Shown here: piece by piece, positions 8,327 to 58,440 of the stretch
How positions within the stretch are numbered: position 1 is the stretch's first letter
Layout: each line of letters starts with the position of its first letter
From: a virus
Taxonomy: Duplodnaviria > Caudoviricetes
Virus record (IMG/VR): IMGVR_UViG_3300032116_000009
Length of the DNA stretch: 64,000 bases
Direction: 5' to 3' (one strand)
Translations under genes and position numbers: made by a program
The notes under the pieces: model-generated
What the model was told of the DNA's origin: nothing
Database searches by the model: none
The model's input: the letters and a program-made list of their open reading frames with translations, nothing else

Positions 8327-8905
8327 TTAGTCTTTTTTGGGAGGACACCCTAAGTAGGGTCTACCGTCATAAATGTTTTTTGCATGTGGCCCTTCTGCAT
8401 CGACATAATGTAAGAAAGATTGTAAATACCATCTTTGAGTGAATGGTTCTCTCCAGTGATATAAATCACATCCTCTATAAAGACATAAATCTCCTGGTTT
8501 TAGTAATATCTCTGCAGCATTACTTTTATCTTCATTTTCACTAAAGTAAATTGGAGATATTTCTTCTCCATTGGGAATTGCTAGTGATAGTGTAGCGGAT
8601 ATTTCACATGATGGCCTATCTCTATGAATTATAAGTTCATCATCTTTACCATAAAATCTTGTGTAACTATAGGTTGGTAACAAAATTTTATTTGTTACTT
8701 TAGAAAGATGTTCTTTAGAATTTTCTAATATGGTATCTATCAGAGGGTCACCATAAAATGAACAACTACCTGGAGCTTGATCATCACCATAGGTGACATT
8801 GAATCCAGATTTAATTCTTGTATAAAAATATTGTTCTATAAATTTTAAAAAATCATGATTAAGAAAATTTTCTATAATATAATAACCATTTTTACTAAAA
8901 CTCAT
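8327..8905 (-). CDS. 2OG-Fe(II) oxygenase-like protein
   Basis: HRD (HxD) motif, PGD..LY.G, distal HWR; clearly similar to N-terminal half of 57223..58440. Confidence 0.75.
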   Translation of the reverse strand: MSFSKNGYYIIENFLNHDFLKFIEQYFYTRIKSGFNVTYGDDQAPGSCSFYGDPLIDTILENSKEHLSKVTNKILLPTYSYTRFYGKDDELIIHRDRPSCEISATLSLAIPNGEEISPIYFSENEDKSNAAEILLKPGDLCLYRGCDLYHWREPFTQRWYLQSFLHYVDAEGPHAKNIYDGRPYLGCPPKKD

Positions 8906-8911
8906 TGAAAA

Positions 8912-9583
8912 TTACCTCAATTTGGGACCATGAACCCAACCCACTAGAGTATGTCGAGTTCCTTTAGTTACTGGAGTTACTTCGTGTAAAACATTGGAAG
9001 GAAAGAATACTATTTTACCTATCTTTTTTTCAATCTTTATTGGTTCAGAAGAAATACCAGAATATAATAATAAATCACCTCCCTCATATGTTGAAGGATC
9101 GGATAGTTGAACTACGAAACTCAATTTTCGATCTTCTGGTATATTCCAAAACATTGGATCTACATGTTTGGAATAATGTCCAGTTTCTTCTCCTCTATAT
9201 TCTGTAAATTGTAAAGATTCTATTTTTGTTAAATCAAAATCAAAATATGTCTTGTTGTGATTAATGACATAATCAGTCAATCTTCTATAGATCCAATCTG
9301 TATTGCAGTTCATTGGCATCCAACATATTGAAGATGTTCTTATTTTCTTAATAACAATTTCTTTTTCGTCGGATCCAACAGTTCCATATTGTTTTTTTAG
9401 TTTTTTTGAAATAAAGATAATTGCCCTTATTTCTTCAGGACCAAAGATATTATCTTCTGTTGAATAACTTACAGTCTCTTTAGGATTTAAATACCAATAT
9501 CCACTAGTTGATCCGTTAGATAATACTTGGAATTGATAGATATCATCTAAAGAATTTTTATATGAAAAAAAGTCAGAGATCAT
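8912..9583 (-). CDS. 2OG-Fe(II) oxygenase (PKHD/prolyl-hydroxylase type)
   Basis: HVD, RKLS, YEGGDL, FPS..LHEVTPVTKGTR..LVGW; start moved to ATG 9583 overlapping upstream stop. Confidence 0.88.
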   Translation of the reverse strand: MISDFFSYKNSLDDIYQFQVLSNGSTSGYWYLNPKETVSYSTEDNIFGPEEIRAIIFISKKLKKQYGTVGSDEKEIVIKKIRTSSICWMPMNCNTDWIYRRLTDYVINHNKTYFDFDLTKIESLQFTEYRGEETGHYSKHVDPMFWNIPEDRKLSFVVQLSDPSTYEGGDLLLYSGISSEPIKIEKKIGKIVFFPSNVLHEVTPVTKGTRHTLVGWVHGPKLR

Positions 9584-10130
9584 AATTAATTTTAGATAGC
9601 TCGTGTACTGTCGAACAAGATTCAATTTCTTTAAAAATGTTCATTTCTGATAGTGATAATTCAATATCATGTTGATTTATAAGATCACACAATTCTTTTA
9701 TTTCTTCTGCACGGAATGAATAATAATCGTTTATTATCTTATAAACAAATGTTTTTTCTGGACTTTGATCGGCTTGTAAATTTTTAATATTTAAATCAAA
9801 AATAGTAGTTTTATTAACAGGACACCTTATATTTTTATAAGTAACACCTATTTCCTTTTTTAATTCAAAATGATCGGAAATAATTTGTTTAAAATGATTT
9901 TTATTCAGAGTTAAATTTTCTGGAGATGAACTATAGTCTTCCAATAATTCTGAAGTTATTTTAATCCATCCTAAACCTGGATTCCCACTCCAACTTAAGT
10001 CCTTTAATTCTTCTTCAGAAAAATTGGTTAGGCCAGCTATATTTTTCCAGTATTCTGGGAGTGGTTCTAATTTACTTATTATTTGTTTCGTATTAGTATC
10101 TACTAAAACATAAAAATCATTCTTCGTCAT
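9573..10130 (-). CDS. Hypothetical, possibly tail-fibre assembly associated (DUF4376-like C-terminus)
   Basis: 185-aa ORF in fibre-accessory context; family call tentative. Confidence 0.55.
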   Translation of the reverse strand: MTKNDFYVLVDTNTKQIISKLEPLPEYWKNIAGLTNFSEEELKDLSWSGNPGLGWIKITSELLEDYSSSPENLTLNKNHFKQIISDHFELKKEIGVTYKNIRCPVNKTTIFDLNIKNLQADQSPEKTFVYKIINDYYSFRAEEIKELCDLINQHDIELSLSEMNIFKEIESCSTVHELSKINYDL

Positions 10131-10569
10131 TTACTTCACTTTCTTCTTTTACTTCATCATTTTCATTTACTGGTTCAATTGATTTTATATTTTTCATTTT
10201 CGTTTCCTCTATTTTAAGTCTATCTTCTTCCTTTAGTTGCCAAGCAGCAGCTCCCACCCAAAAAGCACCATTTGGAGTATCGGTGTCCCATCCTCTCCAA
10301 GTGGCAAAATCTTGTCTGGGTCTCATCGCAACTTCTAATCCAGTTGCAGCTGCCAATTGGTTAATTATCTCTACAGCTTCTACAGGTTGGAGTATATACC
10401 AAAGATGAGAATAGTCACCTCTCATACTTATTTCTAAGATTCCACCAGTGGTTGTTCCTACTGAAAATGATCTCGCTCTATTTCTATTTGACTCTAAATT
10501 TGCGAGTTCGTTTTCTTCATAAAGTTGATGGATTTTCTGTCTTGTTTTTGATGTTTTCTTAGGTGCCAT
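10117..10569 (-). CDS. Hypothetical protein
   Basis: 150-aa ORF behind late-type promoter motif. Confidence 0.75.
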   Translation of the reverse strand: MAPKKTSKTRQKIHQLYEENELANLESNRNRARSFSVGTTTGGILEISMRGDYSHLWYILQPVEAVEIINQLAAATGLEVAMRPRQDFATWRGWDTDTPNGAFWVGAAAWQLKEEDRLKIEETKMKNIKSIEPVNENDEVKEESEVNDEE

Positions 10570-10592: not shown

Positions 10593-10600
10593 TATTTATT
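10593..10600 (-). promoter_or_regulatory. T4-type late promoter motif
   Basis: AATAAATA, 24 nt upstream of ATG 10569. Confidence 0.5.
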
Positions 10601-11714
10601 GGGAACCCCAAGTGATTGTTATGTATCCACCAGCAGCAACAGAAACTGGATAATTAGTTAGAGGGGTAACTGCAATATCACTTGCAGTAGTTGGATTTGC
10701 TGGACTTCCATCATTACCGGGATTAGAATCTCCTGGATTTCCAAAATCACCATCAAATCCTGCATTACCTGGATTTGAAGCACCTCCTCCACCTCCTCCA
10801 CCGCCAGCAGATTTGATCTGTGGAGCATTTGTTGGTGGGGTTACTGATCCACCTGAACCACCATCGCCGCCACGTTGACCGTCGGCCGCGAAGCCGCCTC
10901 CTCCACCTCCTCCACCAGTCGCAGAACCTGTACCCGTTCTTCCGGGTCCACTGCCTCCAGGATTTCCTGTTCTGGATGAAACTACGGGAAATATGTCTCC
11001 TGCTCCCAATCCACCAGGACCACCGAAACTAGTATTTCCACTAGCCGAAGTAAATGTTCCAGCATTAATACTTCCAGCTCCGCCGCCGCCACCACCAGAA
11101 CCACCGGCTCCACCAGTACCAGCCCCACCATTAGTTCCTGGAGTACCATTATTTCCGGATCCACCAGAACCTCCAGCTCCCCCTGGAAAGGATATTCCAA
11201 AAACAGTACTAGCTCTTCCTGGGTTACCACTAGGACCAAAACCACCAGAACCACCAGAACCTGCAGAAGTAGTAGTGCCTGGATTTCCATTTGTACCGCC
11301 ACCACCAGAAGAACCTGCAGTGGCAGTTGCTGAGGGTCTAGGGGAAGTACCGTAACTTAGTGAAGCTCGTTTTGCTCCTCCAGCACCTCCACCTCCTCCA
11401 GGAAAAGTACCGGGATTTCCTGAGGCACCATCTTGGGTTCTAAAATCTCCTGCGGTTGAACATGCACCACCACCACCTCCGCCACCACCGCAGCGGCCTG
11501 CGTTTCCATCATTACCTACACCAGCATTTCCTCCAGATCCAGCAATTCCTTCACCACCTGGATTTCCAACACCACCTTCACCTTCAACAGAAACTTTTGA
11601 AATTTTCGCAGGTGTTGTCCAGGTAGTTTCAAAATTTGAAGTGTCAGGAGCAATGAAAGTTACACTTCCACCACCTTCCATTGTTGCTCTGAAAATGTCT
11701 CTGGTTATAGGCAT
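10596..11714 (-). CDS. Glycine-rich virion/fibre-associated protein
   Basis: Several G5-G8 runs and Gly-X-Y stretches (GNP-GGE-GIA-GSG-GNA-GVG); second gene downstream of the long fibre gene. Confidence 0.8.
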   Translation of the reverse strand: MPITRDIFRATMEGGGSVTFIAPDTSNFETTWTTPAKISKVSVEGEGGVGNPGGEGIAGSGGNAGVGNDGNAGRCGGGGGGGGACSTAGDFRTQDGASGNPGTFPGGGGGAGGAKRASLSYGTSPRPSATATAGSSGGGGTNGNPGTTTSAGSGGSGGFGPSGNPGRASTVFGISFPGGAGGSGGSGNNGTPGTNGGAGTGGAGGSGGGGGGAGSINAGTFTSASGNTSFGGPGGLGAGDIFPVVSSRTGNPGGSGPGRTGTGSATGGGGGGGGFAADGQRGGDGGSGGSVTPPTNAPQIKSAGGGGGGGGASNPGNAGFDGDFGNPGDSNPGNDGSPANPTTASDIAVTPLTNYPVSVAAGGYITITWGSQ

Positions 11715-29571: not shown

Positions 29572-31437
29572 TTATGTGGCTGATAGAGATGTTAGAAGTA
29601 TGTTCTTATATAAACTATTTAACACTTGACCTTCACTTGGCCCAGACACTACTACTGTTTGAGAACCTCCATTTGGCGTAGAAATAACGACAGGTTTTTG
29701 ATTACCATTTCCAGAAAGTATAGGAATCAAAGTTACTGATGATTGTGGCATATTATAAGATGGATATTGTTGGATTTGTTGAGGTATTACAACCAATTGT
29801 GTAGATGTTGGTTGTATCATCGAGTCCTGTACTTTAGAAATATTATTTTCATCATATTTCATTTGAGTTAGTTTTTCTTGCGGAAAAACATTTGTTTGCG
29901 CTTGGATTAAATTATTAGATGAAGATTGAGTGGATGGTTTGATAAACCTCTGACTCATTACTTGTGATTGCCTTTGGATAGTAGTTTGGTCTGTCGAGGT
30001 TTTATTCATCATATTTGGATTGGGGACAAGATCTTGCATCTCTCCAGATTCTTTTCCTTTTGGTTTTATTTCCCCTTTTGTTTGTGCAAGACCGGGTTTG
30101 GAATTTGGAGCTAAATGGCCAATCCAAGTTCTTGTTCCCTGAATATATCCACCAAGTCCTCCCCTTCCATAACCACCAAAATCTTTTCCAGTTGGACCTA
30201 TATTACTCAAAGGAACAGGTACTTTGGTTCCTTTTCTTACAAATACATCAATTGATTTTCCACTACCGCTATGAGTATGCGATCTTCTTGCGGCATCAAC
30301 ATAATTTCTCAATTCCGAATCACTATATTGTTTTGATGGTAACAAATCAATTCCTGGATTTAAATATACTGGAGATCCTTGTTTTAATAATGCTTTTACC
30401 ACTGTTGTAGTATCATTCACGACTTCAGAAACAGTTTCTCCCTGGAAATGTCCATGAACCCAACCAGTAGAATTTCTTACGTTTCCCGTTTCTCCAAATT
30501 CCGCATTACCAGATCCGTACTGAACTGGTCCACCAGTAGATTCATCCGTTGGAGGCGGCAATTCTTCCGGATCTAACTCTTCATCATATCCTGTTGGAGT
30601 ATCAGTGACCTCTGATAATTGTAAATTATAAGAAACTCTTTCAAATTGAAATACTACCCTTTCAAACTTATCTAAAACTTCTGGTAAAGATAATTTAGCA
30701 GCGGCTGCAGCTGCTTCTTTTTGTTTTGCCTCTTGTATTTTAAGTTTTGATTCTATTTTTTGTTTTGCATTTTTTTCTGTAGCTTCATAAGCTCTATCTG
30801 CAAAATATCCACCAGCAAAAGCCCCTAATCCACCTACAGCAGCACCTAAAACAAATCCCAATCCAGGAATAGGAACTAAACCTTGTCCAATCATTCCAGA
30901 TGTTATAGCACCCGCTAAAGCTCCACCAGCGGCTGCACCAGCAATTCCTCCAGCTGCAGATCCAGCAGCACCTGCAGCAGCTTTTCCAGTCGATTCTCCT
31001 TGAGAAATCCCCTGAGCAAAATCAAGTCCAGCCAAAAGTGGTGTCAAAACACCTAATGCTCTAACGCCTGGTATTTTTATTTTTGTACCAGATTGTAATG
31101 GTCTTCCTGCTTTACTATTTGGTTTTGGTAATTTTGATTTACCATCTTTTTTTCCGAAGAAATCTCCAACAAAAGATGCAGCATCTAAAGCCCCACTTGC
31201 AAGACCACTCAATAAGTTACCGGCACTTCCAAAACTTACAGCTACATTTGCTCCTAAAGCTTTCTTAAGTTTTCTTTGATTAAATTTTATTGCCTTTAAA
31301 TTATTCGTTTCCAGTTGCATGAAACGAACAAAATCTTGATAGGTAGTTTGAGACCTCTTCATTTGTGAAGTGGATCTATTTGTACTTACAATATTGTTTG
31401 CTGCATTCAGCAGCATTGAAGAGATTCCTTTAGCCAT
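29572..31437 (-). CDS. Tape-measure/hub-like protein with putative circularly permuted M23 peptidase domain
   Basis: Gly/Ala zipper region; STGWVHGHFQ precedes H..S.D.F...GT.V and WIGHL. Confidence 0.65.
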   Translation of the reverse strand: MAKGISSMLLNAANNIVSTNRSTSQMKRSQTTYQDFVRFMQLETNNLKAIKFNQRKLKKALGANVAVSFGSAGNLLSGLASGALDAASFVGDFFGKKDGKSKLPKPNSKAGRPLQSGTKIKIPGVRALGVLTPLLAGLDFAQGISQGESTGKAAAGAAGSAAGGIAGAAAGGALAGAITSGMIGQGLVPIPGLGFVLGAAVGGLGAFAGGYFADRAYEATEKNAKQKIESKLKIQEAKQKEAAAAAAKLSLPEVLDKFERVVFQFERVSYNLQLSEVTDTPTGYDEELDPEELPPPTDESTGGPVQYGSGNAEFGETGNVRNSTGWVHGHFQGETVSEVVNDTTTVVKALLKQGSPVYLNPGIDLLPSKQYSDSELRNYVDAARRSHTHSGSGKSIDVFVRKGTKVPVPLSNIGPTGKDFGGYGRGGLGGYIQGTRTWIGHLAPNSKPGLAQTKGEIKPKGKESGEMQDLVPNPNMMNKTSTDQTTIQRQSQVMSQRFIKPSTQSSSNNLIQAQTNVFPQEKLTQMKYDENNISKVQDSMIQPTSTQLVVIPQQIQQYPSYNMPQSSVTLIPILSGNGNQKPVVISTPNGGSQTVVVSGPSEGQVLNSLYKNILLTSLSAT

Positions 31438-33200
31438 TATCCGTCAACGATGTTGTAAACCATTTTAGAATATAATGTAAGGAAATTATCAGGATTTGTG
31501 GTGGGTAACATTGGAACAGTTTCTCCTCTAATGCCTGTTATAGGTGCTTGAGGTGGTTTTGCGGTTCCTTGTTGATTTCCACCTCCACCTTGCAAAGGAA
31601 GAATATTTACTTGTGGTTGCGATTGTGTTACAGGAACTTGTGCAACCTGTTGTGCAGATTGTTGTTGCATTTGTTGTTGTGCTGGAGCGGCAACAACTGC
31701 CGGTTTATTTCGTTGTTGAGTTGATGCGACTGGTTTATTACCACCTGATCTAATATTTCTCAATTCGGAAATAGTAGTTGCATATGTTTTGCCAGCAAGA
31801 TTTCTTCCAGAATATTGATCTTGATATGTTAAATCTGCTGTTCCGCCTAGTTTTGCAGCATTAATTTTTCCCTGAGGCAATCCTCTCCATGTTGGAGCAA
31901 GTTTTTGTAAAAATTGTTCTTCTGATATTTTACCGGATAAAAACTCATTTATTCCATGACTTGATCTTAATTCGTTTAGTGTTATTGCATCTTGAACTTC
32001 TGGTGTAAATTTTGTATTTGCATTGAATCCAGCTCTTTGCGCTCTTTCCAATAGATATTGGGGCATTTGTTGATATCTACCAATTGCTCCTCGTGCGTTT
32101 TTAGCCAACCACCCAATCGTTTGCTCTGTAGCCTTACCGGGAGTTTTTCCTGCACTTGTATTAAAACTATCATATCCTTCCGGACCTTGTTCGACTGAAG
32201 CAATAAGATCTAATACCCCCTTTTCTCCAGTCGTAGTAACACCAGGTGATCCAGAAACACCAGGTGCTCCAGGTGCTCCTGTAGCTCCTCGAGCTCCATC
32301 TTTCGCTTGTGTAGATGTGGATTTTCCTCCTCCAGGTTGTTGTTTTGATGGTCTCGTTGATAATGACTTTAGAACAGCAGAAAATCTATCTAATATTGCA
32401 TTAAACTTGTCTAGTAATGGTCCAGATAATCCTTCACCAGTTTCTCCCATTAACTGAGGTTGAACTCCACCGCCAACGTCTTGAAGAGCATTGGTCACCA
32501 TTGCTCCAGTGCCTGCACCAGCAAGAGCAGCACCACCCAACATTAATCCAGGGCGTCTTCTCATAGACCTTAATATTCCAGTGTTTCCCGCTCTTTTTAA
32601 TGGTGGGCCTGGAACTTTAACATCCAAATCTATTCCACCACCTCCTGCATTAGCTGTAGGTAGATTGGAAAGTTGATCGACTATTCTTATAATTGTTTGA
32701 CGAATGCTTTTAGCGACTTTGAAAGTTTCATCGAATACTTTCCTGAGTTCTACTAAACTTTCATTTAGACTTTTTATATTATTTGGATTTGCAAAAAATC
32801 TTATATATCCAATTGCTTTATCATATAAACTCAAGAAATTGGATAAAATTTTATTCGGAGCGTTTGCATCAATAGAATCTGTTTTAGAAATAAATCTATT
32901 TTGTAAATCTCCTACAGTTTTTTGAACAATCTGATTTACATTTTGAGTTATTGCTTGTACTCTATTCTCAACATTGTTTAAAATATTTGATGATAAAGTA
33001 TTAATGATCGAACCAAGATCTGGAACTTGTGGAGCAACTCCAGCAGTTCCTCTTTGAAATCCTACAATTTTGTTAGCAGCACTAGCAACCACAGAAGATC
33101 CAAGAGGAGAACCACCAGAAATAAAGTTCTGAACTGCTTCTGGTGTAACTCTACGTTCTCTAGCAATAACTCCTGGATTTAGTGGTGATTTAATTGCCAC
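31437..33200 (-). CDS. Tape-measure/hub-like protein with lambda-R/GH104-like lysozyme domain
   Basis: LDLIASVE..Y, AIGRYQ, FTPEVQD, LAPTWRGLP. Confidence 0.75.
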   Translation of the reverse strand: MAIKSPLNPGVIARERRVTPEAVQNFISGGSPLGSSVVASAANKIVGFQRGTAGVAPQVPDLGSIINTLSSNILNNVENRVQAITQNVNQIVQKTVGDLQNRFISKTDSIDANAPNKILSNFLSLYDKAIGYIRFFANPNNIKSLNESLVELRKVFDETFKVAKSIRQTIIRIVDQLSNLPTANAGGGGIDLDVKVPGPPLKRAGNTGILRSMRRRPGLMLGGAALAGAGTGAMVTNALQDVGGGVQPQLMGETGEGLSGPLLDKFNAILDRFSAVLKSLSTRPSKQQPGGGKSTSTQAKDGARGATGAPGAPGVSGSPGVTTTGEKGVLDLIASVEQGPEGYDSFNTSAGKTPGKATEQTIGWLAKNARGAIGRYQQMPQYLLERAQRAGFNANTKFTPEVQDAITLNELRSSHGINEFLSGKISEEQFLQKLAPTWRGLPQGKINAAKLGGTADLTYQDQYSGRNLAGKTYATTISELRNIRSGGNKPVASTQQRNKPAVVAAPAQQQMQQQSAQQVAQVPVTQSQPQVNILPLQGGGGNQQGTAKPPQAPITGIRGETVPMLPTTNPDNFLTLYSKMVYNIVDG

Positions 33201-51578: not shown

Positions 51579-51735
51579 TTAGTCTATCCTCACATTTAGT
51601 ATAAAAGGTTCCATTTACATAACAAGACTTACCTGGTTCATAATATTTTATTACAGGTGTTTGTATCCTTGGATATTCTACCACATTTTTTACATGACAG
51701 AAAAGATTGTATCCACAAATAAGAGCTTCAATCAT
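51565..51735 (-). CDS. Hypothetical protein (56 aa)
   Basis: Read manually: MIEALICGYNLFCH...YYEPGKSCY.NG.FY..C. Confidence 0.55.
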   Translation of the reverse strand: MIEALICGYNLFCHVKNVVEYPRIQTPVIKYYEPGKSCYVNGTFYTKCEDRLNGTK

Positions 51736-52595
51736 CAGCACTCATCCATTCCAAGTGATTTAGTAACTTTGCGAAGAGTATAAGAACCATTATTATTATC
51801 TACCCACTCAACTTGATCTCCTTCTTTAAGGTTTGCAGCTTCTAGAAGATCATCTGGAAAATTTACATAATAGTCATCCACACCATCAATTACTGATTGT
51901 TGAACGGGAAGTAACCACTTCTTTACTTTATCTTCCTTGATCAAAACTCGTTCAGTTTCTCCAGGATTGCGAGCATAAACTGTCTTCCCTCCATCTGGAG
52001 ACTCATAAATTTTCCCACTGAAGGGGTTCAACCGACTTGGATCATTTCGGTCATAATCATAGTAATATTTGGAGTATTCTCCATCAAGTTTTGCTCGTTT
52101 ATCGTAGTACTCAGCTTCTCTTAGATTATATTCACGACACTTTTCTTTTTCCTGATCCGATGATGCTTTGTCACACATCTCATTCAGTTCTTCTTCGGTA
52201 TAACGAAGTGCTTCCATATCACTATGTCCCCATGGGGGCATACAGTCATCTTTACTTACACTACTTACCGTCGAACCTTTGTATTCTTCTGGATAATAAT
52301 TCTCTTCCCAGAAAGAAGTCCAAGACTTTTTACATTCTTCAGATGAATCGTCCTTATCACAACTGAAAACTTTATTCAGATGAGTCTCATATTTGTTACT
52401 CTGACTATTACCATTTAGAAGAACAAGTAATTCATTACAACGATTTGCATTAATTGTGAAGTGATTATATTGTTCTTCAACGACACCTTTGATTACATCA
52501 TAGATTTCCTGTGGGGTTGCTTCAGAAGAAGACAAAGAATCATACATCCAATTTTCAAGATTCTCAAGAGAATACTTCTTATAGTCAAAGTCCAT
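51735..52595 (-). CDS. Mosaic protein with C-terminal AbrB/MazE-like domain
   Basis: C-terminal YVNFPDDLLEAANLKEGDQVEW.D..NGSY.L.K. Confidence 0.7.
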   Translation of the reverse strand: MDFDYKKYSLENLENWMYDSLSSSEATPQEIYDVIKGVVEEQYNHFTINANRCNELLVLLNGNSQSNKYETHLNKVFSCDKDDSSEECKKSWTSFWEENYYPEEYKGSTVSSVSKDDCMPPWGHSDMEALRYTEEELNEMCDKASSDQEKEKCREYNLREAEYYDKRAKLDGEYSKYYYDYDRNDPSRLNPFSGKIYESPDGGKTVYARNPGETERVLIKEDKVKKWLLPVQQSVIDGVDDYYVNFPDDLLEAANLKEGDQVEWVDNNNGSYTLRKVTKSLGMDEC

Positions 52596-52764
52596 CGGTC
52601 AAGTCCTTGATTGCTTGTTCCATAATAATCTTAATTTGATCATCTGTCAAGTCATTTAGCCAAGACCATCGTTCATCGTTTTTATCCCACTCAAAAGCAA
52701 AAGAGCCGTCATCATTTTGGATAATATTTAATCCACTGGGATGTATAGGAGTATTTTCAGTCAT
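52585..52764 (-). CDS. Hypothetical protein (59 aa)
   Basis: Read manually: MTEN...NDDGSFAFEWDKND.RW..LN.L. Confidence 0.6.
   Translation of the reverse strand: MTENTPIHPSGLNIIQNDDGSFAFEWDKNDERWSWLNDLTDDQIKIIMEQAIKDLTDGL
52622..52650 (-). promoter_or_regulatory. Sigma70-type promoter
   Basis: TTGACA (52650-52645), 17 nt, TATTAT (52627-52622). Confidence 0.6.
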
Positions 52765-53725
52765 CTCTTTCTAAATCTAAAGTTACACAATGGAAACACC
52801 CACTTAAAGTTCTTGAGTGTCTCATAGGAAGCATGGCACAATCTATACCATATTTTTCTAACTCTTTTCTTGTTGGTTCTTGATGTTCTTCTAAAACAAC
52901 GAGATTAGGATTGACACTAAAAAGATTCATGTTAATCCATGTTGAGGCATGATTATAACCTGGATAGTATCCAATGTCAACAGGTTCTGGGCACCAAATT
53001 ACATCCCAATTTTTAAATGGTGCAGGAAGAACATCTTTACTCTTAATCCTTTCTGGATTAGCCAATAATAATCCCTCTCTTAGAAATGCAATTGTTGTGT
53101 CAATGTGCATATAACTATACACACCTTGAAGTAAATGAACTTGAATGTCTGGACCCAAAACTTGTTGAAGTTTATTCGCACCAGAAATGTTTCCACTATT
53201 AGAAACTAGATATAAAACATGATCATTAGCCCTAATAATATTGGCAGCATCAAAAGCAGGAGAGTGTTCAGTGAGTGCTAAAACATCTTTATTCCCTAGA
53301 CATTCATCATTATACAATTTGTCATCATAGGTACAAGTTAATGGAACTAATCCATCAAAATGATGAGCGATTGAACCAAAATTATACCTCCTAGCCTTTA
53401 GGGGCATTGGAGTTGCAAAATAGTTATTTCCATGGATGAATATACAATCTCTGGGACAGAAATTATAATATCCTGTTGGTTCACTATGAGGTCTTACTAC
53501 ATCTACTCCCTCTTGTCTTAAGAAGTTTGCGAAGATTTCTAGATCTTCATTAGCTTCTTGTATAACTTGATCAGGATATAATCCTGACTTTACATCGGAA
53601 ACATCTTCACGATCTGCATAGTTAATCAATCTCAGACTACGATCCATTTCAGGCACTCTTGCATAATCTGCAATACCCACAATAACCTTTTTTAATCTTC
53701 CCCACTCATTAGTACTATTGTTCAT
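52757..53725 (-). CDS. Amidinotransferase (glycine/inosamine-phosphate amidinotransferase family)
   Basis: NEW..LK.VIVG, CPRD, FDAAN, HIDTT, C-terminal G.FHC.T.D. Confidence 0.88.
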   Translation of the reverse strand: MNNSTNEWGRLKKVIVGIADYARVPEMDRSLRLINYADREDVSDVKSGLYPDQVIQEANEDLEIFANFLRQEGVDVVRPHSEPTGYYNFCPRDCIFIHGNNYFATPMPLKARRYNFGSIAHHFDGLVPLTCTYDDKLYNDECLGNKDVLALTEHSPAFDAANIIRANDHVLYLVSNSGNISGANKLQQVLGPDIQVHLLQGVYSYMHIDTTIAFLREGLLLANPERIKSKDVLPAPFKNWDVIWCPEPVDIGYYPGYNHASTWINMNLFSVNPNLVVLEEHQEPTRKELEKYGIDCAMLPMRHSRTLSGCFHCVTLDLERDD

Positions 53726-54221
53726 TTAATACTCCAGTTACTTGAATTGCATATCTATCTTTCATACTGAAATTATAAAATGCATGGATTTCATCATAGT
53801 TCCAGTAAAAACAATCACCAGCCTTCCAATCACAGTAACAAGTATCTTTCACTTGCAAAATTTGGCCTGGAGAATTATCTTCCAACATAACCATACATCT
53901 AATAACATTTTCAGATCCTATGTTATTAATTTCTAGATATTTACCAAAAAGATCTGTATGAAGAGGTAGATATTGTCCTGGTTTAAAATAATTTACTGCT
54001 GCGCCAACTTTATCTAAAAAATAAAATTGAGGAATGATATATTCCTCAACGCACTTTGGCATTGGATCTGGTTGTTGGTACTTGTATATAGATAATTTTT
54101 CCTCACTGTGACCAGAACTTAAATATTGGTTAACCAACTCTTCATCTTTATGTGTAGACAAAACGTAGTCTAGATTATAAAAATCTTTGATATTCCAATT
54201 AGGTTTTATATGATTTAACAT
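53715..54221 (-). CDS. Cupin/2OG-oxygenase-like protein (Asp/Asn beta-hydroxylase-like)
   Basis: PGQ.LPLHTD, W.AGD, distal HA..N. Confidence 0.65.
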   Translation of the reverse strand: MLNHIKPNWNIKDFYNLDYVLSTHKDEELVNQYLSSGHSEEKLSIYKYQQPDPMPKCVEEYIIPQFYFLDKVGAAVNYFKPGQYLPLHTDLFGKYLEINNIGSENVIRCMVMLEDNSPGQILQVKDTCYCDWKAGDCFYWNYDEIHAFYNFSMKDRYAIQVTGVLNEQ

Positions 54222-54814
54222 TTAAACACAGACATGTCAGGTAAGTGTGGGTAATCTAGATAAGTCCATTTTTTAGGTTGTTTATCACGAACTTCATTAA
54301 ACCTAAAAGAACCCAAGATAGCTGTCTCTGGAGTCATATAATAATGATAACCTACGGTATCAATGTCTTGTTTAGCCCAAGGCTTAGAAACATCTCTACC
54401 ATCGTAAGACATTTTCTTTAGTATATCATAGTCATTTTTGTTTTGCAACAGAATCATTCCACCCCTACCAACACTAAGATGTTTTTTATACTGGAAACTA
54501 AGGCACATGTAGGTGTCAGGAATATAACTATTTTCTTTCCATAGTACAGCAGCGTCAATAATATTTGAATTGCCTAGTTGATAATAATCTTCCCAGTCTT
54601 CATTTCTCCATGTCCAATTCAATTCCAATTTCATTAAAGTCATTGGAATAGAAACATAAGTGTTAGTTGGAATAGTCAAATTATTGCATGAAGTATGTCT
54701 AAGACATAATTCTATTGCATGTGTACATGAGTCTACAGCTACAGCATATGGGGCTGAGAAATATTCTGCGACTTTGTTTTCAAACTCATTTACTTTTTCA
54801 AACATACTTATCAA
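54215..54814 (-). CDS. DegT/DnrJ/EryC1/StrS-family sugar aminotransferase (short form)
   Basis: FE...A.Y...YAVAV.SCT.A, T.VS.P, IDAA, SFQYKKHL..G.GGMI, GY.Y.M. Confidence 0.85.
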   Translation of the reverse strand: MISMFEKVNEFENKVAEYFSAPYAVAVDSCTHAIELCLRHTSCNNLTIPTNTYVSIPMTLMKLELNWTWRNEDWEDYYQLGNSNIIDAAVLWKENSYIPDTYMCLSFQYKKHLSVGRGGMILLQNKNDYDILKKMSYDGRDVSKPWAKQDIDTVGYHYYMTPETAILGSFRFNEVRDKQPKKWTYLDYPHLPDMSVFKC

Positions 54815-55649
54815 TGTCGGGTTCTCTAGGTGTTATAACTCTATCATTTGGTTTTCCATACATGAAAAACTCTTCTAATGTATAATCATCTCTCAGAACG
54901 GTCCACCATTTCTTATAAGCCTTCCTAGCAAGAACTAAATCAGGTCTATCAGATCTTACATAATTTACCGAATAACTACCAATATCTGGATTTACACTTA
55001 TCAAAGGCATTGAATAAGTTCTTCCACTATGTATTAGGAAATAATCTATAGTTACATTAGGTATATCTAGTCCTATCGACCATTTCCAATTTGAAATTTT
55101 ATGAGCAAGATTATACTTTTCATCTACACAAAAAAGTCTTATTAATTTTTCTGCGTAACTTCTTCTTATCAATGCAGCTCCACTATCATGTCCAGACAAT
55201 ATTGGATGTAGATAACATGGAATAATTTTTTCATTTTCAAAACCCAGTTGAATACAATCCCAATCGAAAGGAATGTTATTCATCAAGTATTCCCAATCAA
55301 AATGCCAATAATCAATATAACTTAAATCATAATCATCTTCCATTAAGATAACATATTCTTCAATTGTATTTTCCAACCAACTTTTGAGCATATCAATAGT
55401 GGAAAGAGCAGTAGCTACTTCTATTAAATGTTGTCTCCACCTTTTACATGTTGAAATATCATTCAGTATTACTTTACTTTTCCATTCATCAAAATTTTGA
55501 AGTTGATAACTAGAAGCAGAAAACCTTTTAAAGTTACTAATTTTATATTTTTCGTATTGTTCTTCAGTATATTGTTTTCTATCAGGTCTTTCGTCAAGAT
55601 TTAAATAATAAATCGTTGGCAATCCTTTAAGTTTATCTTTTAAATTCAT
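54798..55649 (-). CDS. GT25-like glycosyltransferase (copy 1)
   Basis: IYYLNLD.R.DR, RFSA, LMEDD, DWDCIQL. Confidence 0.75.
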   Translation of the reverse strand: MNLKDKLKGLPTIYYLNLDERPDRKQYTEEQYEKYKISNFKRFSASSYQLQNFDEWKSKVILNDISTCKRWRQHLIEVATALSTIDMLKSWLENTIEEYVILMEDDYDLSYIDYWHFDWEYLMNNIPFDWDCIQLGFENEKIIPCYLHPILSGHDSGAALIRRSYAEKLIRLFCVDEKYNLAHKISNWKWSIGLDIPNVTIDYFLIHSGRTYSMPLISVNPDIGSYSVNYVRSDRPDLVLARKAYKKWWTVLRDDYTLEEFFMYGKPNDRVITPREPDIDKYV

Positions 55650-55650
55650 A

Positions 55651-56451
55651 CTATAACTTTATTAATAGATCGTTTTTATTGACAGAATCTATAGACATTA
55701 TATCACATATATTGTAGTTTGTACTCTTATTTTTCCACCAATCTAAAACAACTTCATCAGACTTTTTAGCTAGATGGTTTGGTTTATCCAAATAACCATC
55801 ACTTATAAAATGAGAATTCGATATGAAGAGGGGTAGGGAATAAGTAACGCCTATTTGATATGGAACAAAATCACCAGATTGATAATGATACTTTGGCCAT
55901 TTTTCACTTAATCCATAGTTTGTATAAAATTTAAAGAATCCATTGTCATAGTGCAATCTTATCATTTTCTCTGCATAAGATCTTGTTATCATAAAACAAG
56001 TTGCAGCATGATTGTTCTTAGTCCACTTCGATAAGAACATTGGAATATACCTCTCGCCTATGATATGAAATTGAATGCAATCCCAATTACAAGGAAGTTT
56101 GTTAAAGATATCTTTCCAATTAAAGTCCCAGTATTCTACCGTATCAAATGATAGATCATCCTCTATCATCATACAAACTTCAGATGTATTTGAGTTATAC
56201 CAATCCACAATACTCTGTATCCTATTCAATAATACAGAAAGAAATTGCGGTTGAGTTAAAATATCATCCGCAATTATTTTTGACTTCCACTCAGAATAAT
56301 TTTTTGGGTCATAACGTGAGGCAGAAATTCTAGTATAATTTTTAATATTATACTTTCTAAACTGATTTTCAATATACAGCTTTCTTTCTACTCTATGATC
56401 CAAATTCAAGTAATAAATTGGAGGAATATCTTTTAATTTCGATTCAGTCAT
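55651..56451 (-). CDS. GT25-like glycosyltransferase (copy 2)
   Basis: IYYLNLD.R.ER, RISA, IEDD, NWDCIQF. Confidence 0.75.
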   Translation of the reverse strand: MTESKLKDIPPIYYLNLDHRVERKLYIENQFRKYNIKNYTRISASRYDPKNYSEWKSKIIADDILTQPQFLSVLLNRIQSIVDWYNSNTSEVCMMIEDDLSFDTVEYWDFNWKDIFNKLPCNWDCIQFHIIGERYIPMFLSKWTKNNHAATCFMITRSYAEKMIRLHYDNGFFKFYTNYGLSEKWPKYHYQSGDFVPYQIGVTYSLPLFISNSHFISDGYLDKPNHLAKKSDEVVLDWWKNKSTNYNICDIMSIDSVNKNDLLIKL

Positions 56452-57230
56452 TCAACAACCGGTACAGTCATTAGATGATCATATTTTTTACCGTATGTGA
56501 AAAAATCCTTTAGGGTAAAATCATCTCTATTGTTTTTCCACCAATTATAATAAAGATCTCTACAAATGAAATGATGTTTCTTTGGAATCTCATCTAGATT
56601 TGGGTTTTGTGTAATCAAAGGAATCTGATATGTCTTACCAACAAATCCAAAAAACTGATCTAATCCTAGACATCTATAAAAATATTCTGGACCATAGTTA
56701 TGGATAAAGGAATATTTTCCCTTGATCGTGTGGATATCGATTAACTTTTGTGCAAAGTGTCGATTTATTAATACTGGTCCATAAAAACTATGGCTTGTTT
56801 TTGGGTGCAGAAAGAATGAAATATAATTATGAGATTCAAATCCCAATTGAATACAGTCCCAATCATATGGAAGATGAGTCATTAGATATTTCCAATCAAA
56901 ATGCCAGTATTCTATTAGGTTCAGATCATAATCATCTTCAAACAAAATAAGATATTTTTCATTCGTATTCTCTAACCAATGTCTAACCATTTCCAATGTG
57001 GAAAGATTTATACAAACCTTTAAGTAGTCTTGTTCTTTGTATATTTCACTTTTATAAACAAGACTTTCCCACTCTTTAAAATTCTCCGGATAAAAAATAC
57101 CTTCAGAAAATCTAGTTACATTTGAAATTTCCCATTTATCGAATTGGGATTCCATGTATTCTTTTCTTTCTGTTTTACTATCAACATTTAGATAGTATAT
57201 GGTAGGAAGTCCTTTAAGTTTTTCAGACAT
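56448..57230 (-). CDS. GT25-like glycosyltransferase (copy 3)
   Basis: IYYLN.D...ER, LFEDD, DWDCIQL. Confidence 0.75.
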   Translation of the reverse strand: MSEKLKGLPTIYYLNVDSKTERKEYMESQFDKWEISNVTRFSEGIFYPENFKEWESLVYKSEIYKEQDYLKVCINLSTLEMVRHWLENTNEKYLILFEDDYDLNLIEYWHFDWKYLMTHLPYDWDCIQLGFESHNYISFFLHPKTSHSFYGPVLINRHFAQKLIDIHTIKGKYSFIHNYGPEYFYRCLGLDQFFGFVGKTYQIPLITQNPNLDEIPKKHHFICRDLYYNWWKNNRDDFTLKDFFTYGKKYDHLMTVPVVE

Positions 57231-58440
57231 ACCAAGTTATAATAGAATATCTTGTTCCTGAAGTAACAGGCATAACTTCATGCGGATACATAAAGTTTGA
57301 TGGGAAGAGAATGGCGTCTCCCTTTTTAGTCTTAATAACTATCTCTCTATCAAAAAATGCAAATTCACCACCCTCATAATCATCATTCAAACTGAATGAA
57401 CAACTAATTGCTCTTTGTTGTAATTTAAATGAATCTGTATGTTGAATATAAAATTGACCTTCTTTATATCTGAGTAGATCATATCCAGTATCTATATCTA
57501 CATTTGCATCAGGAAATTTTTCTTTATACTTCTGAAGGGCTTGTGAAGCGGAAAGAAAGAAATCTGAATCAAGTTGTTTTCTATATTGTGTATTGTACTG
57601 TAAGGTATTTTCTTCACTAATATTCAATACTGAACAACTTCTAACGTTTGGATTTACTTCACCACCGCCGACACTTGTATCTTTCCATAAGTCACAATCT
57701 TTATATTCAGATATAATTTTATTACAAAGTTCATCTGATACTAAAGAATCTAAAACAACAATAAAATCTTCTAGCTTTGTTTGACTTCTAATACTAGGTT
57801 TAACTATAAGTTCTGGAGTTTTTATAATTTTACTTTCTTCTAAAGTTTTTTCAACTTTATTTCCATGTTGATCACAATTTATCCCTAAATGACTTTTATC
57901 AAAATAACTATTAACTCTATTTCCACGACTGAAAACATAATGCAGGAATACTTGTGTGTACCATTCACCATCATATTCATCTCTCCAGTGAGGTGCATCG
58001 CATCCCATATACAGTAATGCATCTCCAGGAGACAACATAATATTATGTTTATCACTATTGGGAGTTTCAATCCAAATTAACCACGGCCGATCACTACCTA
58101 AGTTAACAGTCAATGATACTTCACATTGATCTTTATCAGTGTGTTTTTTTAAAACACTGCCCTTTCGATAAGTTCTGGCATAAGAATAAGTAGGCAATAC
58201 AGTTTCCCCACAGATTTTACTAATCTCTGGAGTTTTTTCACAAAGAAGTTCTAAGAAAGAAATATAATTGTATACCGAGGACGAGTTTAAAGCCTGATCG
58301 TCACCAAGTACATTATTTTTATCACAGAAAGAATTAAACTCATCTGATAAACTTTTAGATCTTTTAATGTCTATAAAATTTTTGACAACAAGATAATTGT
58401 TTACCTTGATGGAAGGATTTAGATTATTCATAACAAACAA
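57223..58440 (-). CDS. Fusion of two 2OG-Fe(II) oxygenase domains
   Basis: N-half HTD...HWR like 8327..8905; C-half HTD, LNDDYEGGEF, FPSNFMYPHEV.PVTSGTRYSII. Confidence 0.85.
   Translation of the reverse strand: MFVMNNLNPSIKVNNYLVVKNFIDIKRSKSLSDEFNSFCDKNNVLGDDQALNSSSVYNYISFLELLCEKTPEISKICGETVLPTYSYARTYRKGSVLKKHTDKDQCEVSLTVNLGSDRPWLIWIETPNSDKHNIMLSPGDALLYMGCDAPHWRDEYDGEWYTQVFLHYVFSRGNRVNSYFDKSHLGINCDQHGNKVEKTLEESKIIKTPELIVKPSIRSQTKLEDFIVVLDSLVSDELCNKIISEYKDCDLWKDTSVGGGEVNPNVRSCSVLNISEENTLQYNTQYRKQLDSDFFLSASQALQKYKEKFPDANVDIDTGYDLLRYKEGQFYIQHTDSFKLQQRAISCSFSLNDDYEGGEFAFFDREIVIKTKKGDAILFPSNFMYPHEVMPVTSGTRYSIITWYV

Follow-up and report, generated by a model that had tools for sequence, protein, structure and literature searches.

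A half-size DegT-type enzyme and a StrB1-like amidinotransferase in a conserved phage gene block: a candidate guanidino-sugar module

The 64-kb window considered here (the whole stretch of DNA analyzed; approximately 35% G+C) comes from IMG/VR virus record IMGVR_UViG_3300032116_000009 (Duplodnaviria; Caudoviricetes), and the nearest cultured relative of this phage is the Synechococcus phage S-SCSM2R. It carries a chain of overlapping or abutting minus-strand genes running from position 58440 to position 51735, which encode, in order, a double 2-oxoglutarate (2OG) oxygenase, three GT25-like glycosyltransferases, a half-size DegT-type pyridoxal phosphate (PLP) enzyme that we call mini-DegT (196 residues, 54215-54805), a small Fe(II)/2OG oxygenase (168 residues, 53715-54221), a StrB1-like L-arginine amidinotransferase (322 residues, 52757-53725), a 59-residue open reading frame (ORF) and a 286-residue protein. 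Mini-DegT is proposed to be a sugar aminotransferase, and the amidinotransferase is named by homology. An earlier, sequence-only reading had described overlapping genes for a DegT-family aminotransferase, a cupin-type hydroxylase and an amidinotransferase. The three ORFs were confirmed on the minus strand, with overlaps of 8, 7 and 11 nucleotides at the mini-DegT, oxygenase and amidinotransferase genes. That reading had given the aminotransferase 199 residues from a TTG start (54215-54814), whereas alignment of the family points to the ATG at 54805 as the start, yielding a protein of 196 residues that begins with MFEK and lacks the C-terminal domain, much of which had been noticed to be missing.

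Comparison of the amidinotransferase with PDB sequences using phmmer identified StrB1 (1bwd) as the best match over the full length of the protein (E = 7.3e-63, 216 bits, residues 5 to 320), followed by HsvA (9e-38), human AGAT (3e-32) and SxtG (8e-28), all aligned over approximately residues 4 to 320 of 322. The score of StrB1 is approximately 80 to 100 bits above those of AGAT and HsvA. Pfam and NCBIfam profiles returned weak arginine deiminase (ADI) matches at the C-terminal end and nothing else. Residues D93, D159, H207, D209, H312 and C313 align with D108, D179, H227, D229, H331 and C332 of StrB1, which have catalytic and arginine-binding roles according to the StrB1 and AGAT structures. 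The phage residues are invariant across 60 non-redundant viral homologues. The amidinotransferase with its Asp/His/Cys motifs, as originally described, is thus intact and closest to StrB1. Approximately 10 residues of AGAT, at query positions 135 to 146, are absent from both the phage enzyme and StrB1. This AGAT segment is reportedly a lid helix, and its absence is said to open the active site of StrB1 to bulkier acceptors.

Homologues of the amidinotransferase were found at E≤1e-10 in 2291 protein clusters, with identities of 69 to 99% in the best 120, and also in 190 IMG/VR stretches; at the 50% identity level the family has 763 representatives. Members of the wider family are fused to heterogeneous partners, namely class II aminoacyl-tRNA synthetase-like, TauD, DAO and HalD proteins and an A-T didomain of nonribosomal peptide synthetases (NRPS). 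These fused relatives are uninformative about the phage clade.

Mini-DegT matches the PF01041 profile (DegT_DnrJ_EryC1) with E = 4e-17 and 62.9 bits, against a cut-off of 19.8. It does not share the two-domain architecture of DegT proteins, in which a large PLP domain and a C-terminal domain make up about 360 to 400 residues. A profile built from 28 mini-DegT sequences aligned residues 5 to 53 and 84 to 179 with approximately residues 35 to 91 and 164 to 253, respectively, of GDP-perosamine synthase. Approximately 70 internal residues between the TxT and D-A-A strands have no counterpart in mini-DegT, nor has any part of the C-terminal domain. The invariant residues of the family are D25, T28, D84, S103, K108, the GRGG motif and R137. 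K108 is the PLP lysine of the motif S103-F-Q-x-K-K108, and D84, in the motif I-I-D-A-A, is the aspartate that faces the pyridine nitrogen. The PLP residues do not vary among the 28 viral sequences, nor among 36 others, 195 to 294 residues long, that come from assemblies of bacteria and archaea. The AlphaFold2 (AF2) model is compact, with a pLDDT of 95.6, and is confidently predicted to be a trimmed fold-type-I domain. In Foldseek it comes closest to sugar or related aminotransferases of the DegT family, namely GDP-perosamine synthase, ArnB, AHBA synthase and BtrR (E about 4e-9, TMq 0.65 to 0.75).

The half-size DegT family is present in phages, bacteria and one archaeal metagenome-assembled genome (MAG). 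Because the PLP residues are invariant, the AF2 model is confident and the family is conserved, mini-DegT represents a conserved half-size variant rather than a decaying gene. The suggestion that the aminotransferase may be degenerate is therefore not upheld, D84, S103 and K108 being present throughout. A ColD-type dehydratase was also considered, and rejected, since the PLP lysine is kept in 65 of the 65 sequences checked. Longer proteins fuse mini-DegT to S-adenosylmethionine (SAM) methyltransferases, an FkbM methyltransferase, a hexapeptide (LbH) acetyltransferase, a dehydratase of the short-chain dehydrogenase/reductase (SDR) type, or DUF1796. Methyltransferases, acetyltransferases and dehydratases are classical partners of sugar aminotransferases. 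The variety of these tailoring enzymes suggests that the half-size DegT protein is a portable module of sugar pathways, and the N-methyl- and acetyltransferase fusions suggest that its product amine is usually N-tailored, a slot that the amidinotransferase would fill in the phage.

The 168-residue oxygenase scores below the Pfam cut-off with PF05118 (Asp_Arg_Hydrox; E = 6.8e-4, 19.9 bits versus 22.6), and a profile search against PDB sequences gave chance-level matches only. Residues H88-x-D90, H146 and R156 are invariant in 25 oxygenase sequences whose identities go down to 24%, R156 being the putative 2OG-binding residue. Structural alignment of the AF2 model (pLDDT 93.9) using VIA-align returned 2OG oxygenases in all of the top 27 rows (Z 13.0 to 9.9, 131 to 153 aligned residues). 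Among them are PiuC (Z 13.0), bacterial P4H (12.3), PHDs (12.2), AspH (11.5) and PolD (11.5), with 135 to 153 of the 168 residues aligned. We read the protein as a minimal Fe/2OG oxygenase with a predicted double-stranded beta-helix fold. Small sugar-isomerase cupins also ranked high in Foldseek, but they cover approximately 100 residues with lower Z scores and the HxD...H...R motif fits an oxygenase; that assignment was rejected.

We next turn to the company these genes keep. Genes within 8 kb of the amidinotransferase were counted in the best 80 viral loci that hold it. The genes co-occur, as the original proposal presupposed: mini-DegT lies beside the amidinotransferase in 74 of the 80 loci, and the 168-residue oxygenase is found in 68 to 69. 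GT25-like genes are present in 60 loci, at about three copies per locus, and the double 2OG oxygenase in 45 to 51. Most of the loci without mini-DegT are contigs cut short upstream. The commonest core is the architecture of the window, i.e., double oxygenase, three GT25-like genes, mini-DegT, oxygenase and amidinotransferase; a radical SAM gene is inserted in 28 loci. Approximately 15 divergent loci, whose amidinotransferases are 64 to 66% identical to that of the window, contain neither GT25 genes nor the double oxygenase. Most of them keep mini-DegT and a distant oxygenase homologue beside the amidinotransferase, and 12 have a Ugd-like gene on the opposite strand.

Another gene of these loci, absent from the window, encodes a carbamoyltransferase of the NodU/TobZ type (PF16861, 3.5e-52). 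It is found 1 to 2 kb 3′ of the amidinotransferase in 30 of the 80 loci, for example at 8728-10260 (+) in locus L025, and given this frequency the glycan may also be carbamoylated in many relatives.

The conserved block of the window starts with the gene of the double oxygenase, a two-domain 2OG-Fe(II) protein of 405 residues (57223-58440). Its C-terminal half is P4H-like (PF13640, E = 8.5e-20), and its N-terminal half weakly matches PF13532 and PHROGs 3531 and 61. The GT25-like paralogues that follow have 260 residues (56448-57230), 266 residues (55651-56451) and 283 residues (54798-55649). All three match PHROG 2835, "glucosyltransferase" (E = 9e-35, 3e-38 and 5e-41, respectively), and carry an EDD(Y/L) motif, which reads EDDYD in the first. 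The 260- and 283-residue paralogues are 43% identical. The PF01755 profile (Glyco_transf_25) gives the 283-residue paralogue 21 bits (E = 3.4e-4), below its cut-off of 24, and does not match the other two. On the other side of the trio, the 59-residue ORF (52585-52764), which is shorter than the usual ORF cut-off and was read from the sequence, overlaps the stop of the amidinotransferase gene by 8 nucleotides and the start of the next gene by 11, and it is predicted to be translationally coupled between the two. It is 74% identical to the ORF at the same position in locus L016, and its family follows the amidinotransferase in 24 loci. Last in the chain is an acidic protein of 286 residues (51735-52595) with an AbrB/MazE-like C-terminal end (PF04014, E = 3.4e-4, below the cut-off), homologues of which are found 3′ of the amidinotransferase in 31 to 43 loci.

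No membrane-spanning hydrophobic segment was found in any protein of the cluster, and all are taken to be soluble. Scans for promoters and terminators gave no more sites than in shuffled sequence. The three GT25-like genes lie upstream of the trio, where the sequence-only reading had placed three GTs; the operon limits, and the co-transcription that it claimed, are drawn from the gene overlaps alone. Elsewhere in the window, in a fibre-like gene region, a protein of 587 residues (31437-33200, minus strand) contains a collagen-like run of seven Gly-X-Y triplets (32235-32297), and one of 372 residues (10596-11714, minus strand) contains glycine-rich runs. The GT25 enzymes and the P4H-like oxygenase might act on either of these proteins.

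The mini-DegT profile was also run on 185,579 species genomes (genome_contigs), which identified 41 loci. They are mostly on MAG or single-cell contigs, some longer than 300 kb, and one belongs to a Bdellovibrio isolate, on a contig of 2.2 Mb. In 30 of the 41 loci, the gene immediately after mini-DegT encodes a Gmd-like dehydratase (by far the best match; TIGR01472, E = 6.5e-108; PF16363, 5e-109). A WbuC-family cupin precedes mini-DegT in 19 loci, and a SAM methyltransferase does so in 17. On the Bdellovibrio contig, Ugd-like, SDR and mini-DegT genes stand in a row, with an amidinotransferase and three radical SAM genes approximately 6 kb away.

Similar neighbors are found in viral variants of the cluster. 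The two loci with full upstream sequence but without mini-DegT, L035 and L041, have WbuC and a Gmd of the type seen in the cellular assemblies directly before the amidinotransferase, in place of mini-DegT and the oxygenase. Among complete phage contigs the closest is L007 (248.8 kb), with 79% identity in the amidinotransferase; there, a Ugd-like gene and a gene for an SDR epimerase/dehydratase separate the oxygenase from the amidinotransferase. Together with the N-methyltransferase, N-acetyltransferase and dehydratase fusions of mini-DegT, these Gmd-like, Ugd-like and SDR neighbors argue that the module belongs to nucleotide-sugar chemistry. The likely entry point is a 4-keto sugar, either a GDP-linked 4-keto-6-deoxyhexose or one that originates from a uronate. 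Just upstream of WbuC and Gmd, L035 (5048-6623, plus strand) and L041 encode proteins of 167 and 364 residues. Those of L035 have no Pfam match and no PDB sequence match, and one or the other, though not homologous to mini-DegT, may supply the amine.

Our preferred reading, to which we assign a probability of roughly 0.55, is that the module aminates the keto group of a nucleotide sugar and then N-amidinates the amine from arginine to give a guanidino sugar. The path from keto sugar through amino sugar to guanidino sugar had been put forward from the sequence alone, and the nucleotide-sugar context and the homology to StrB1 now make it the best-supported reading. We infer the individual chemical steps, their order, the sugar and the acceptor from what was observed of the enzymes (their identity, intactness, fold and co-occurrence) and of the context of their relatives. 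The three overlapping genes would form a cytoplasmic sugar-tailoring module acting on a nucleotide-activated sugar. A 4-keto sugar nucleotide would be supplied, most likely GDP-4-keto-6-deoxymannose made by a Gmd-type enzyme or else a UDP-4-keto-pentose or -hexose for which a Ugd/SDR pair would be responsible, and mini-DegT would transaminate its keto group to an amine. The amidinotransferase would then shift the amidino group of L-arginine, via a thiouronium on Cys313, onto this amine, giving a permanently cationic guanidino sugar and ornithine. The 168-residue oxygenase could add one more oxidation, by hydroxylating the sugar or by forming a keto group. Finally, the GT25-like enzymes and the double 2OG oxygenase would assemble the sugar into a short glycan. 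The acceptor would be soluble and is most plausibly a structural protein of the phage, on which the double oxygenase, with its P4H-like C-terminal half, may prepare hydroxylated residues. A more specific version is possible but doubtful. It holds that phages and a few bacteria make a nucleoside diphosphate (NDP)-guanidino sugar, for example 4-guanidino-4,6-dideoxyhexose from GDP-4-keto-6-deoxymannose, using a hitherto unrecognized half-size class of PLP sugar aminotransferase and a StrB1-type enzyme, and put it on virion fibre proteins.

Several points weigh against the guanidino-sugar reading. The cluster of the window contains no enzyme that forms a keto sugar, and no homologue of Gmd, WbuC, Ugd or the twitch radical SAM proteins was found within the 64 kb; as neither a Gmd-type enzyme nor a Ugd/SDR pair is encoded in the cluster, the keto sugar must be provided either by the host or by another region of the phage genome. 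In 38 of the 41 loci from cellular assemblies, no amidinotransferase lies within 10 kb of mini-DegT (three have one), showing that the pairing is characteristic of phages and not obligatory; many of these "cellular" loci, on MAG or single-cell contigs, could moreover include phage DNA. Mini-DegT may have an unusual substrate, because the C-terminal domain that helps to bind the substrate in canonical enzymes is absent. StrB1 itself is known to act on phosphorylated cyclitols, not on nucleotide sugars, and the fusions of the wider amidinotransferase family to amino-acid- and NRPS-type enzymes mean that family membership alone does not fix a sugar as the acceptor. Lastly, the activity of the enzymes, their product and the modified glycan are all predicted from sequence.

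Some of the same features could reflect direct tailoring of a macromolecule. The enzymes would then oxidize, aminate and amidinate a sugar that a protein or DNA already carries, or would modify protein side chains (hydroxylysine or lysine to homoarginine) in the manner of collagen modification, with the GT25 enzymes and the double 2OG oxygenase taking part. The domain missing from mini-DegT is the one with which canonical enzymes close over small substrates, and the amidinotransferase has the deletion of StrB1 relative to AGAT. In addition, the GT25 family includes collagen galactosyltransferases, all proteins of the cluster appear soluble, and the protein encoded at 31437-33200 has its short Gly-X-Y run. 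However, the trio also occurs without GT25 genes and double oxygenase, beside a Ugd-like gene, in the approximately 15 divergent loci, and the neighbors and fusion partners of mini-DegT in cellular assemblies act on free nucleotide sugars. We therefore regard direct tailoring as unlikely.

The amidinotransferase might instead make a small soluble guanidino metabolite, such as guanidinoacetate, homoarginine or an amidino-polyamine, as AGAT, AmtA and HsvA do. It would then be an auxiliary nitrogen or polyamine gene to which the sugar neighbors are unrelated. This is in effect the published annotation, "creatine biosynthesis" or "glycine amidinotransferase": JGI gives homologues the latter label, and a catalogue of marine auxiliary metabolic genes (AMGs), which does not analyze the phage gene family, treats glycine amidinotransferase (GATM) solely as part of the route to creatine (PMC11360552). 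The polyamine amidinotransferase HsvA is the second-best PDB match, distant relatives are fused to amino-acid-type enzymes, and a speD gene lies approximately 5 kb downstream of the S-SCSM2R copy. Unrelated neighbors are nevertheless difficult to reconcile with the gene overlaps and with the retention of mini-DegT and the oxygenase even when all other genes change. In the variant clusters, Gmd, SDR or Ugd-like genes lie directly against the amidinotransferase. The lead of StrB1 over AGAT and HsvA in the sequence comparison and the missing AGAT-specific insertion also speak against it, and we consider a small-metabolite function improbable.

A streptidine-type aminocyclitol (guanidino-inositol), in keeping with the "antibiotic synthesis" function suggested for S-SCSM2R, would account for StrB1 being the closest characterized relative and for a DegT-type aminotransferase followed by an amidinotransferase, as StsC is by StrB1 in the established pathway, but it is very improbable: the variable neighbors are nucleotide-sugar enzymes and glycosyltransferases, the best PDB matches of mini-DegT are hexose-nucleotide aminotransferases (although the cyclitol-acting BtrR was matched too), and Pfam and NCBIfam searches of the cluster genes and conserved neighbor families (glycosyltransferases, radical SAM enzymes, SDRs, Ugd-like and Gmd-like proteins, carbamoyltransferase) found no inositol-phosphate synthase and no inositol dehydrogenase, kinase or phosphatase of the StrI, StrN and StrO types. 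The cyclitol alternative that the sequence-only reading had offered beside the guanidino sugar is not supported.

The phage proteins differ from their characterized relatives in several ways. The amidinotransferase is approximately 26 residues shorter than StrB1, the L-arginine:scyllo-inosamine-4-phosphate amidinotransferase of Streptomyces griseus. Its gene is surrounded by those of glycosyltransferases and nucleotide-sugar enzymes, and the acceptor, a phosphorylated cyclitol in StrB1, is here more probably an NDP-amino sugar. Mini-DegT has its best profile and Foldseek matches in GDP-perosamine synthase (3dr4, 3bn1) and ArnB (1mdz), with E about 1e-9, and has in common with them the SFxxxK lysine, the pyridine-nitrogen aspartate and the GxGG loop. 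In cellular assemblies it directly precedes a Gmd-like dehydratase, the maker of the substrate of perosamine synthase. It differs from these enzymes by its length (196 versus about 370 residues) and by the sequence H-Y-Y-M in place of the canonical N-x-R-M. The oxygenase shares its fold, the HxD...H triad and the conserved Arg with small 2OG/Fe(II) hydroxylases such as PiuC (9qn0), bacterial P4H (4iw3) and AspH (5apa), and with the sugar-acting EvdO2, AviO1 and HygX; it is 9 to 16% identical to them and, with 168 residues, among the smallest of its kind.

In S-SCSM2R, ORF305, ORF308 and ORF309 are orthologues, the amidinotransferase being 78% and mini-DegT 58% identical to those of the window. 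The block of that phage likewise consists of the double 2OG oxygenase, glycosyltransferases, mini-DegT, oxygenase and amidinotransferase. It differs by an extra radical SAM gene and a glycosyltransferase gene inside the block and by a GT2 gene after it. The orthologues were annotated as "antibiotic synthesis genes" that were "never reported in cyanophage genomes", on the basis of annotation only (PMC12801897). The context evidence points to glycan tailoring rather than to that label. In the same study, the virion proteome of S-SCSM2R also contained a prolyl dihydroxylase and ORF266, another "glycine amidinotransferase" that is unrelated to the first (PMC12801897).

A more remote locus is found in Firehammervirus-type Campylobacter phages, which carry a pentein that is 24% identical to the amidinotransferase (E about 2e-15), in CP220 (NC_027997, 75914-76975) and 11 other records. 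In its neighborhood are two GT-A-like genes and at least five for radical SAM enzymes, and the locus can be seen as a distant analogue of the block described here.

The enzyme families are known, and the module is a widespread variation on known sugar-tailoring chemistry. Our literature searches found no paper on "guanidino sugar" and none that links StrB1 or DegT to a phage function; neither the half-size DegT architecture, nor its pairing with a StrB1-type enzyme, nor a viral guanidino sugar is described in the papers found. We know of no example of a permanently cationic guanidino glycan, either in viruses or among cellular glycans. To our knowledge, the 196-residue mini-DegT would also be the smallest fold-type-I sugar aminotransferase scaffold, and it would be useful for enzymology and engineering. 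S-SCSM2R, on Synechococcus WH7803, is a cultured carrier of the block, which makes the proposal directly testable.

If the guanidino-sugar reading is correct, catalogues of viral AMGs, in which such genes appear as a step of creatine biosynthesis (PMC11360552) or under "antibiotic synthesis" (PMC12801897), would need correction. A common accessory module of aquatic phages would then make a new kind of sugar with an arginine-like, always positive group, and this cationic sugar could alter how virions stick to host surfaces or how they evade host defences.

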